Shown here piece after piece: positions 48,398-62,772 of a stretch of 64,000 nucleotides of DNA. The notes beneath the pieces were generated by a model. It saw only the letters and a program-made list of their open reading frames with translations, was not told the DNA's origin and ran no database searches. The translations under genes were made by a program, and so were the position numbers. Positions within the stretch are counted from its first letter, which is position 1; the number at the start of each line of letters is the position of its first letter. Source of the DNA: Octopus vulgaris (Eukaryota); assembly GCA_951406725.2 (NCBI GenBank), contig OX597827.1, forward strand, positions 49,228,001 through 49,292,000, written 5' to 3'.

Positions 48398-48830
48398 AGG
48401 CATGGCTGTGTGGTAAGCAGTTTACGTCCCAACCACATGGTTCCGTTTTCAGTTTCAGTGCGAGGCACCTTGGGTAATTCTCTTCTACTATAGCCTTGTA
48501 GATGACCAAGCTTTTTTAATTAACTTGGTACACGGAAACAAGACGCTAGTGTTGTATAAATGTGTGTGTGTGTTTGTGTGTGTGTCATTGTGTGTGCCTG
48601 TTTATCTATGTGCGTGTTTTCATATGTTTAACTTTGTCTTTGTGCCCCACTACCACTTGACAACTGGTGTTGGTTTCTTTATGTCTCCATAAGTTAGTTG
48701 TTTGTCAAGAGAAACCGATACAATAAATACCTGGCTTTAAAAAATAAGGGCAGAGTCGAGTTGTTCGACTAGACCCTTCGAGACGGTGCTCCAGCATGAC
48801 TGCAATTAAATGACTGAAACAAGTAAAAGA
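48398..48830 (+). mobile_element. Family A SINE, full length
   Basis: AGGCATGGCTGTGTGGTAAG...GGCACCTTGGG...CGGTGCTCCAGCATGACTGCAATTAAATGACTGAAACAAGTAAAAGA. Confidence 0.85.
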
Positions 48831-49645: not shown

Positions 49646-49880
49646 GAATTTAGAAAGAAAACAAAAGACGAAGACGAGTGTATAAACAACAAACACATGT
49701 ATTAGTTTAATGCTCAGGAAGTGAGAAAGTCTTTTATGTTTCGAGCCTACGCTCTTCGACAGAAAGGAACACAGAAATAAACAGGGAGAGAAAATAAAAA
49801 AAGGTTTAGTGGCTAGCAATCTAACATGGCGAATGCCGGACAGGGAGGGGCGCACAGGAGGGCTAGGAAGAAGTGGGGAT
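49641..49880 (-). mobile_element. Hammerhead-bearing mini-element (CUGUCGA family), longest copy
   Basis: Minus strand CTTT-CTGTCGA-A-GAGC-GTAG-GCTC-GAAACATA-AAAG at 49766-49731, the same tail, and TA-repeat at both ends. Confidence 0.8.
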
Positions 49881-51509: not shown

Positions 51510-51578
<69 letters not shown>

Positions 51579-51646
51579 AGGTTGAAAAGGAACACACGAA
51601 AAAAGTCAAGGTAGAAAATGCTAAAATAATTTTATAAAAAACATTT

Positions 51647-51682
51647 CAGTACCGGTTTCAGCCATTGAGACTTTTTCAACTG
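51647..51682 (-). ncRNA. Minimal type I hammerhead, U3-A8 core variant
   Basis: CAG-UUGAAAA-AGUC-UCAAU-GGCU-GAAA-CCGG-UA-CUG: stem I CAG/CUG, stem II 4 bp, palindromic ACCGGU stem III, GUA site. Confidence 0.65.
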
Positions 51683-51821
51683 TAAGTACGGAAAACAATT
51701 AAATTTTGGAAAGACAGAGACAGGCATATGTGAAGGAAAATGTCCCTTGTATTTGAATACTATGCAAGTATTTTTTTAAATCTATTCTTTTAATTTTTCC
51801 AAAATTTGTTTTCTATACTTA

Positions 51822-51857
51822 CAGTTGAAAAAGTCTCAATGACTGAAACCGGTACAG
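51822..51857 (+). ncRNA. Minimal type I hammerhead, U3-A8 core variant (stem I mismatch)
   Basis: CAG-UUGAAAA-AGUC-UCAAU-GACU-GAAA-CCGG-UA-CAG. Confidence 0.55.
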
Positions 51858-52614
51858 AAATGTGTTTTTATAAAATTATTGTAGCATTTTCTACCTTGAC
51901 TTTTTCCATATATATATATATATACACTAAATGAGAAATACATTTCGAGAACTATCGACTTATAAACAGAATGATTTCGACACTATCAGCCCAACCAGCA
52001 GTTTCAAACAGCATGACGCTGTCACAGAATATCCGTATTATTTTGGTTCTGACTGCAGCACGTGTTTCCTCCTTGTCGCCATCACAGAGAACTATTTTAT
52101 GCCTAAGCAACACCAGCCATACAGCAAATAATTTGTTTCACCACTTCCTCAGGACTTTTTTCTTTGCTCTCAGCATTTTTAAACAGGCAGTCTGACATAT
52201 CCAGTATAAAGGTCTTCTCTCATACCTCATGCTATCCCTTTCTGGTCCAACGCATGTCACATATACGTAAATTTCTAACTTGTTCCACTTGAATCTAATT
52301 GCAAACCAACGGCTTTCATCGTCTGCGGAAAGTACTGTATATTATTTTCATTGTCTTACATAAGTCCTATGTCATGTCGGCCCCTCATTTTATGTAGACA
52401 TACATAAGTTGAGATTTCAAGGCATTTTAACTCAACAAGATCGTCTCTGCCATATCGACCATCCGCCGAATCCACCTGTATCTTCAAGTCACAAACAGAT
52501 GCGCGCGAGCGCACACACTTATGTGTGTGTGCGTGTGTTTGGGTGTGTGCGTGTGTTTGGGTGTGTGCGCATGGGTGTTTGGGTGTGTATATATATATAT
52601 ACATATACACACAC

Positions 52615-54898: not shown

Positions 54899-55061
54899 TA
54901 CATGCATTTTTTCTCTCCTTGTTTTTTTCAGTGTATCTTTCTGTCGAAGAGCGTAGGCTCGAAACGTAAAAGACTTTTTCTATTCCTGAGCGTTATACTA
55001 ATACATTTGCTTGTTTGTGCTCCACCTGCCTTCGTCTTTTGTTTATTTTCGTAAACTTTCT

Positions 55062-55940: not shown

Positions 55941-56474
55941 GCATAAACTGTACATTAAACAGTATATTTCTATCACCATTTTGTATACACACACACATTT
56001 TGCATACTCTCATACACACAGACTATAATGAGAATATGAAAAAAAAAACATACAATATTTCTGTAAATACTATTCGATATGTGTGTATGTGTGTTTACAT
56101 GATTTATCTGCGTGTATGTATGTGGTGTATGTGTATGTTGCATTTTTTATGTGCACCTGCGTTTTCTCACCTAAGATGTATCGCTATCTAAATGTATGAC
56201 TACCCCCTATGTGGATGTGTTGGTGGGGGTAAATTTGACACACATAATGTTGGAAATTGTTTCGAAGATCTCATGTGTTAATATGACTATCGAAAAATAT
56301 TTGTAGAAAGAGCGGTGGCATTTTGGGAAGATATCGGCTGATAAATAAATTATCACTCTTAGGAACACAAGCATACATTTGCTCAAACACATGCGTACAT
56401 AGAAAAGTATACTCATAAGTCTTTGCACACACAAACATACAAACATACACACACATATATATAAATATTGGTTT

Positions 56475-57951
<1,477 letters not shown>

Positions 57952-58292
57952 GAAATCAAGTGTTTTGACTTCATTTACAAAAGAAACGTGTATATAACAC
58001 TTATGTTATTTTTTACACTAAAAGCTCTTTTCACTCAAAAATATATGTCAGTTTAGAAGTGCCTTATATATACGTGTGTGTATGTGTGTTGGTGTGTTTA
58101 TATATGTATATAAATGTATGTATACAAAGTTTCTTTTAAGCCATTATGAATATGCTAAAGCATGCGTTGAAAAGAATCATACTAAAGAACTTACCGTTGG
58201 GTCGATGTATATATGTATGTTCGAACTGAAATATTTATTCTGAAATGTATTGAAATGTATAAAAACCTTAACCTACCTACACACACACACAC

Positions 58293-62526: not shown

Positions 62527-62759
62527 GGCTGTCTATTTTTCTTCCTATATAGCTGTTTTTCTCGTGTGTACCGTTGGCGATTTTTTTCCCTCTGTCTTCC
62601 CTTCTCTGGATCTTTCCTTCTCCTATGTTTCCGACGAAGAGCTCCGCTCGAAACGTTAAACCCTCCTTCTTTCCTTCTTTCCTGAGCGTCCAATAATACT
62701 ATATTTGTTCCACGTCCTCGCGTTGTTGTGTTTTTTTGTGCTTTCTTGTTTGGATTAAC
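62527..62759 (+). mobile_element. Hammerhead-bearing mini-element (CCGACGA family) ending in (TA)n/(TAGA)n
   Basis: Pyrimidine-rich leader, hammerhead, then TTCCTGAGCGT..TAATAC, also seen after the CUGUCGA-family hammerheads. Confidence 0.75.
62627..62661 (+). ncRNA. Minimal type I hammerhead, U4C variant
   Basis: GUUU-CCGACGA-A-GAGC-UCC-GCUC-GAA-ACGU-U-AAAC: stem I GUUU/AAAC, palindromic AACGUU. Confidence 0.68.
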
Positions 62760-62772
62760 TATATATATATAT

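Follow-up and report, generated by a model that had tools for sequence, protein, structure and literature searches.

The element at positions 51598–51907 of the window (the whole stretch of 64,000 nt of Octopus vulgaris DNA analyzed here) is quite probably an aged copy of an abundant repeat that abuts, in head-to-head orientation and next to microsatellites, a shorter inverted copy of the same repeat. In this reading the repeat unit is likely the end of a terminal repeat (pLTR) of a Penelope-like element (PLE), carrying a hammerhead of the already published U3-A8 kind that is predicted to be inactive at this site. Most likely, the element is ordinary genomic debris. Both the swap in the ribozyme core and the hairpin arrangement are already described in the literature.

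Architecture of the inverted element

The element consists of two copies of a single repeat unit. The long arm (51713–51907, + strand) comprises ~195 nt of the unit and is joined, with no spacer, to the short arm (51598–51712, − strand), an inverted and 5′-truncated copy whose 3′ end points outward and whose first position is 51598. When the arms are aligned, 102 of 108 letters are identical, with two gaps, and both 3′ ends lie 53 nt beyond the predicted cut site of the hammerhead. An earlier note on this DNA, made from the sequence alone, had described an inverted-repeat element. The likeness of the arms stands; a spacer between them does not. Indeed, contigs that continue past 51712 run into sequence resembling 51770–51795 (31, 17, and 26 contigs in runs X1, X6, and X8, among the loose ends listed), and therefore the presumed spacer (51713–51795) is the 5′ part of the repeat unit. 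The element is not built of two equal arms around a spacer.

On its right side, the 3′ end of the long arm directly abuts a (TA)n run (51908–51923), and the ends of other family members also enter TA-rich sequence. The left flank (51510–51597) is composed of a (TC)n(TA)n(TG)n compound microsatellite (51510–51575) followed by a stretch of 22 nt (51576–51597). The latter is rare in the family, with a depth of 16–333 at positions 51577–51588 versus 37,000–594,000 at positions 51601–51612; it contains GTTGAAAAGG, which is similar to the core region of the hammerhead motif. Any TA duplication would be masked by the microsatellites on both sides, so that a target-site duplication cannot be delimited for the element; nor is a tail of 30–40 nt evident at this copy. 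The window as a whole has a GC content of 13–41% and is rich in microsatellites and dispersed repeats. Its region 56400–58000 consists of ~1.6 kb of almost pure TA-type microsatellite, with 13% GC in the bin 56001–58000.

Hammerhead motif and its frequency by chance

The hammerhead-type string reported for both arms is present at 51650–51679 (− strand) and 51825–51854 (+ strand). These are the only two matches in the window with up to three mismatches, and 100 shuffles of the window produced none at this threshold. We confirm that, compared with CUGANGA, positions 3 and 8 alone differ, and that helix II (AGUC/GRCU) is preserved as described, closing a loop of 5 nt in both arms. In the left arm, a complete type I hammerhead motif extends from 51647 to 51682 (− strand), with a 3-bp helix I (CAG/CUG), the core UUGAAAA, helix II AGUC/GGCU, and GAAA; U3 corresponds to 51679 and A8 to 51674, helix III is the palindrome ACCGGU, and cleavage is predicted after GUA (51650/51649). 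In the second motif copy (51822–51857, + strand; U3 = 51825, A8 = 51830), helix I is broken by an A at 51856, so that the right arm reads CAG instead of CUG past the cut site and retains one contiguous pair, with a predicted probability of ~0.01. The 3-bp helix I proposed earlier for both arms is thus found in the left one and fails in the right one, and the complete hammerhead is restricted to the left arm.

The frequency expected by chance was estimated with a type I descriptor that required a core with C3-G8 or U3-A8, at least 4 bp in helix II, GAAA, NUH, and a 3-bp helix I. Across 2000 dinucleotide shuffles of the 64-kb window, the descriptor produced 32 matches (0.25 per Mb), a number that fell to 3 (0.023 per Mb) once helix III had also to be palindromic; the real window contains one match, in the left arm. 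The motif thus goes far beyond chance expectation. The looser rate could be reached somewhere in a large repeat-rich genome, the stricter one hardly. Rfam gave no match in the window at gathering scores; relaxing E to 10 brought up long-hairpin miRNA models and noise but no hammerhead family, which bears out the expectation that searches limited to CUGANGA would miss the motif.

Most properties of PLE-type hammerheads are found in this motif. A paired 3/8 core, GAAA, and NUH are present in both arms (UUGAAAA, GAAA, and GUA), helix II falls in the class of four or more pairs (AGUC/GRCU), and the short palindromic helix III (ACCGGU) would permit dimers. Helix I falls within the range of 2–5 pairs in the left arm (3 bp) and is intact (T at 51856) in 96.5–99.5% of the family depth, the A of the right arm being a private change. 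On the other hand, the bulge after position 9 and the G10.1-C11.1 pair are absent, the main form being A10.1-U11.1 without a bulge. By all testable sequence features except the G10.1-C11.1 consensus, the motif would belong with the type I hammerheads of Penelope-like repeats.

Other hammerhead-like repeats occur in the window. A solo repeat located beside (TA)n is found in two copies, 84% alike, at 54909–55050 (+ strand) and 49653–49794 (− strand); the core of both reads CUGUCGAA, in which U replaces the A of position 6, perhaps throughout the family. At 62560–62760 (+ strand) there is a related minimal repeat of hammerhead-like type, which has the core CCGACGAA (C at position 4) at 62631 and ends in (TA)n.

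Abundance and variation of the repeat family

The run index contained 20 rows with part of the stretch, from 13 studies and under five coded organism labels, and no RNA runs were listed among these rows. Four DNA runs from among the best-matching rows (labels A, C, D, and E; X1 without a recorded kind) were aligned at 80% identity or better and yielded 3197, 3774, 1305, and 2514 contigs. Abundance of the family therefore extends to at least four organism labels. Summed depth does not equal copy number, but so many distinct contigs, in the thousands, imply that copies are very numerous.

Inversion joints are found also at other places of the unit, accounting for 5 of the 15 joints listed: the joint 51633/51830 was seen in two runs, and 51681/51734, 51688/51731, 51639/51712, and 51646/51710 in one contig each. 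For the remaining 10, internal deletions or a switch of mapping from one arm to the other are the better explanation. Central deletions in a palindromic DNA element might also yield variable joints, most joints being represented by one contig. The ends of the family pile up at 51598/51599, after which TA-rich DNA follows. The loose ends at this point fall into two classes, one passing straight into (TA)n (27–45 contigs per run) and a larger one (46–136 contigs) with a weakly shared A/T-rich extension seen in all four runs; agreement within the end classes is 0.46–0.62. The A/T-rich extension is possibly a PLE tail.

Sequence variation was scored at positions where it reached 3% or more of the depth, and 40 of the 58 resulting variant rows were listed. 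Among these, no variation was found at positions 3, 8, or any other of the 12 core positions in either arm, and U3-A8 looks like the family norm. Given that the pair appears fixed, covariation at 3/8 cannot show within the family. The conservation peak at the motif that the earlier note called for receives a mixed answer. In unit coordinates, 0 of 12 core positions vary as against 7 of 24 other motif positions (one-sided p = 0.04, from the 40 of 58 variant rows listed and excluding nine positions where the window copy differs from most of the family), while comparison with the whole arms gives, from the same rows, p = 0.28 (left) and p = 0.10 (right). The peak is therefore weak at best.

The single difference between the arms in helix II had been taken as a sign of selection, being U-A in one arm and U-G in the other. 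This argument falls away, as the U-A form at the wobble pair of the left arm accounts for 83–99% of the depth and U-G is a minority letter or a private change. C11.1 is found in 2–23% of the depth, and G10.1 in one loose-end class as well as in some contigs and RNA reads. These letters, whose phase is not visible in the data, hint at a G10.1-C11.1 subfamily.

Predicted folding

On either strand, the transcript of the whole element is predicted to fold as one long hairpin (−153 and −164 kcal/mol) in which helix II has a probability of 0.0. A read-through transcript carries one sense and one antisense motif and, because the arms pair in one duplex, the ribozyme fold is predicted to be removed from this RNA. 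A dimer in cis between the two arms is ruled out, as the motifs lie on opposite strands and no single transcript carries both in sense. The working twin hammerheads claimed earlier are thus not upheld, the right arm being without helix I and the arms being predicted to lock each other. From these models, the hammerhead in the element at 51598–51907 is predicted to be inactive and, being locked in the prediction, the locus does not make the role of PLE hammerheads easier to test.

Isolated motifs were folded with models that leave out tertiary contacts and protein. As monomers they fold no better than their shuffles (z = −0.48 and −0.19); as dimers they reach pair probabilities of 0.6–0.74 for helix II and 0.5–1.0 for intermolecular helix III. 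In the left-arm dimer in trans, these values are 0.7 for helix II, 0.5 for intermolecular helix III, and 0.39 for helix I, the last mostly accompanied by additional pairing of U3 with A17 (0.33); the energy of the cleavage-type fold exceeds the minimum by 2.2 kcal/mol. A C3-G17 pair is the presumed cause of the G17 block in minimal hammerheads (PMC3884650) and, by analogy, U3-A17 might be its counterpart. No account of a U3-A17 pair was found in the literature searched.

RNA reads and a splice-acceptor-like site

In the raw RNA runs X23 and X24, of which about 6 in 100 were read (~1.9 and 1.8 Gb), 88 and 76 reads from both strands matched the element; none of them is 99% alike to it and most are below 90%. 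Decay is frequent in these reads and affects the palindrome (G>A at 51851 in 17/32 and 9/30) or the cleavage triplet (T>C at 51853 in 9/29 and 5/30), in keeping with old copies embedded in other transcripts. No pile-up of molecule ends was listed in X23, X24, or the contig runs X17 and X15; depth is shallow, the libraries are fragmented, and the reference differs from the family near the cut site, so that this search is uninformative. A like absence of such ends is reported for the active PAc ribozyme (PMC11167929).

Immediately upstream of the core, positions 51810–51824 (+ strand) resemble a 3′ splice acceptor, with 10 pyrimidines out of 12 followed by CAG, the same CAG that forms the 5′ strand of helix I; the arrangement is mirrored at 51680–51694 (− strand). 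By this crude score the site is in the top 2% of the window, where 126 of 6409 AG sites are CAG preceded by at least 9 pyrimidines out of 12. In Penelope of D. virilis, the end of an intron maps to the 5′ end of helix I (PMC4209133). Across 51818–51825, the depth of read pairs with the first mate on the minus strand increases from 13 to 21 (X23) and from 8 to 13 (X24), while in the opposite orientation it is steady at 17–18 and 15–16. This step involves a handful of fragments from libraries whose strandedness is not on record, and no loose ends at 51818–51825 appear among the rows listed. As such, it gives a faint hint of splicing.

It is conceivable, albeit decidedly improbable, that the ribozyme of the family is both splice-gated and self-locking, i.e., that pairing of U3 with the cleavage-site A17 keeps it off until protein binds and that helix I supplies, in its CAG, a functional 3′ splice site. 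In that case, an upstream exon ending in CAG would rebuild the ribozyme exactly at the junction, and thousands of copies could trap and cut host transcripts. Were the U3/A17 combination and the acceptor overlap confirmed, splicing would be linked to the control of a ribozyme in a high-copy repeat.

Origin of the element

The hallmarks of PLE insertion provide the best explanation of the element. Endonuclease-bearing PLEs are described as leaving an inverted 5′-truncated copy at the 5′ end of their insertions and as having a bias toward microsatellites (PMC8557442). The purified PLE protein of Anolis (PAc) cuts AT-rich DNA on both strands, and reverse transcription starts at fixed internal sites downstream of the hammerhead, thereby fixing the 3′ ends; the PAc ribozyme requires protein, and insertion in vitro proceeds without this ribozyme (PMC11167929). 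Here, an inverted 5′-truncated copy is joined head to head to the long arm, 5′ truncation is variable and the 3′ ends are shared across the family (5 of the 15 joints listed), and the target is AT-rich or microsatellite DNA. A plausible course of events would start with an enzyme of the Penelope-type reverse transcriptase/GIY-YIG kind nicking AT-rich DNA. The RNA of the element would then be copied twice from one internal start, 53 nt past the ribozyme cut site, and the two rounds would stop after ~115 and ~195 nt, giving the short and the long arm. In the parent RNA, the motif may work weakly, through a dimer formed by the ACCGGU palindrome or with the help of protein as in other PLE hammerheads, and U3-A8 would substitute for C3-G8.

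As for the PLE parent suggested by the earlier note, a Penelope-like origin is likely and the parent itself was not found in the searches made. Motif pattern scans gave 0 loci in metagenome contigs (two scans) and viral contigs (one scan), Pfam gave 0 matches in the 48 of 193 candidate frames scanned, and no RT or GIY-YIG frame linked to the repeat family was found in the collection scans and the Pfam-scanned frames. The element contains a 23-codon frame (51839–51907, + strand), whose ATG lies in the loop/helix II region and which is open to the end of the right arm. This frame may be a relic of the first codons of the parent; as a lead to the parent it was discarded, since it does not match the PLE protein of the window and, in the left arm, meets a stop at codon 15.

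That PLE protein is encoded near the start of the window. At 3–956, an open frame of 306 codons (3–920, − strand) runs off the window start and stands head to head with a short inverted arm, which contains the 3′ half of a hammerhead (886–897) and terminates, 59 nt beyond the cut site, in (TA)n. A full HMMER search with the frame found 2255 relatives at E up to 0.001, and a word index of longer proteins gave no match at 1e-10. Of four relatives examined, the three full-length ones carry an RT-type YRDD motif, and one of ten scanned relatives matches GIY-YIG weakly (E 0.0009, short of the curated cut-off). The 3–956 element has the same build as the element at 51598–51907, plus a PLE-type coding arm. 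It was rejected as the parent, as it has no DNA similarity with the arms at 51598–51907.

Other origins were weighed against the same data. The repeat unit could be a fragment not of a pLTR but of a non-autonomous retrozyme, that is, a hammerhead monomer of 300–500 nt arranged in tandem elsewhere and mobilized by the enzymes of PLEs. The derivation of retrozymes from pLTRs has been argued (bioRxiv 10.64898/2026.07.22.740005), and the short palindromic helix III with a 4-bp helix II is that of the canonical metazoan type I motifs (PMC4209133). In addition, the loose ends before 51733 agree over ~21 nt and then differ between runs, as could be the case if a fixed 5′ end lay near 51712. However, there is no tandem copy at 51598–51907 and no clear head-to-tail joint among the 15 joints listed, helix I has 3 bp and not 6, and the RNA is scarce and derived from both strands (88 and 76 reads from ~1.9 and 1.8 Gb), which makes this origin unlikely.

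Even less probable is the insertion at TA of a MITE or DNA foldback element, in which the hammerhead would be a captured or chance passenger without a role in the spread of the repeat. Such an element would have equal terminal inverted repeats and a fixed interior, but here the arms are unequal, the supposed spacer is more of the unit, and inversion joints occur at other places and vary. Chance would supply the motif at a rate of ~5e-6 to 5e-5 per 200 bp, and the acceptor-like site at helix I recalls Penelope (PMC4209133). What speaks for a DNA element is that both arms end on the same base in TA-rich DNA with no tail, that the conservation peak is weak, and that decayed cores occur in expressed copies (T>C at 51853 in 9/29 and 5/30 reads). 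Finally, we give almost no credence to the idea that the hairpin-GAAAC-NN-GUA part is a retroposon 3′-end signal and UUGAAAA an A-rich tract: tails at 48811 (+), 55923 (+), and 41869 (−), of a repeat that we take to be SINE-like, do share TGACTGAAAC-NN-GTA (one with two changes), but they are without core or helix I, and the motif lies 53 nt inside the unit and not at its end, with helix I and the palindrome left unexplained.

Comparison with known hammerheads and Penelope-like elements

The swap of C3-G8 for U3-A8, presented in the earlier note as a surprise, had been published by 2011 and again in 2014 (PMC3088659; PMC4209133). Several natural hammerheads in which C3/G8 covary to U3/A8 are active in vitro (Perreault et al., 2011; PMC3088659). 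The compensatory change is the same as in our element; that survey spans the domains of life and, in its accessible part, the U3-A8 cases are not tied to a PLE-type repeat like the one described here. The search under the names of a hammerhead C3U and G8A double change found nothing, and the U3-A8 naming led to PMC4209133 only. A description of this particular repeat family was not found, most subscription papers being out of reach, nor did the partly available literature on octopus, Penelope, and hammerheads contain one. A 2017 paper in RNA Biology reportedly found that small PLE hammerheads cleave as dimers, and it may list this variant or similar ones.

The closest likeness is with the Cercyon PLEs of Schistosoma, which account for ~1,300 U3-A8 hits and include dual motifs on opposite strands, 100–700 bp apart (Cervera and De la Pena, 2014; PMC4209133); in our element, the distance between motif starts and between motif ends is 175 bp. 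The core of the Sm4 family, which reads UUGAAAAA and has a 3-bp helix I, is identical to that of the element. With the S. mansoni Sm3 and Sm4 families the element shares the U3-A8 core, the 3-bp helix I, a U-rich 5′ flank, the palindromic helix III, and scattered copies. It differs from them in its 4-bp helix II with A10.1-U11.1 closing and no clear bulge, in its helix III with a CG loop (ACCGGU), and in residue 17, which is G in Sm3 and U in Sm4 but an A able to pair with U3 in the element. In the same paper (PMC4209133), a Saccoglossus row has the intermediate U3-G8, a Marsupenaeus PLE row combines A10.1-U11.1, a palindromic helix III, and A17, and minimal PLE motifs cleave poorly and only as multimers. 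The PLE consensus given there has, at >80% but not universally, G10.1-C11.1 and a bulge after position 9; the U-rich 5′ flank, 3-bp helix I, and palindromic helix III of the element fit this consensus, whereas its A10.1-U11.1 pair does not.

With respect to the insertion itself, the element resembles the PLE copies described by Craig et al. (2021; PMC8557442) and PAc of Anolis (PMC11167929) in its unequal head-to-head arms, in the shared internal 3′ ends past the hammerhead, and in the AT-rich or microsatellite target with no definable duplication. Unlike those insertions, its arms are non-coding and there is no clear 30–40 nt tail. Animal non-LTR retrozymes (Cervera and de la Pena, 2020; PMC7229834) are likewise non-coding and low in GC, with a type I hammerhead and palindromic helix III; compared with them (see also bioRxiv 10.64898/2026.07.22.740005), the element has no tandem array, a helix I of 3 bp, and no sign of abundant RNA. 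Descriptors confined to CUGANGA, as well as Rfam, undercount U3-A8 hammerheads, and the element adds one abundant family to a class already described, that of the U3-A8 hammerheads of Penelope-like repeats.
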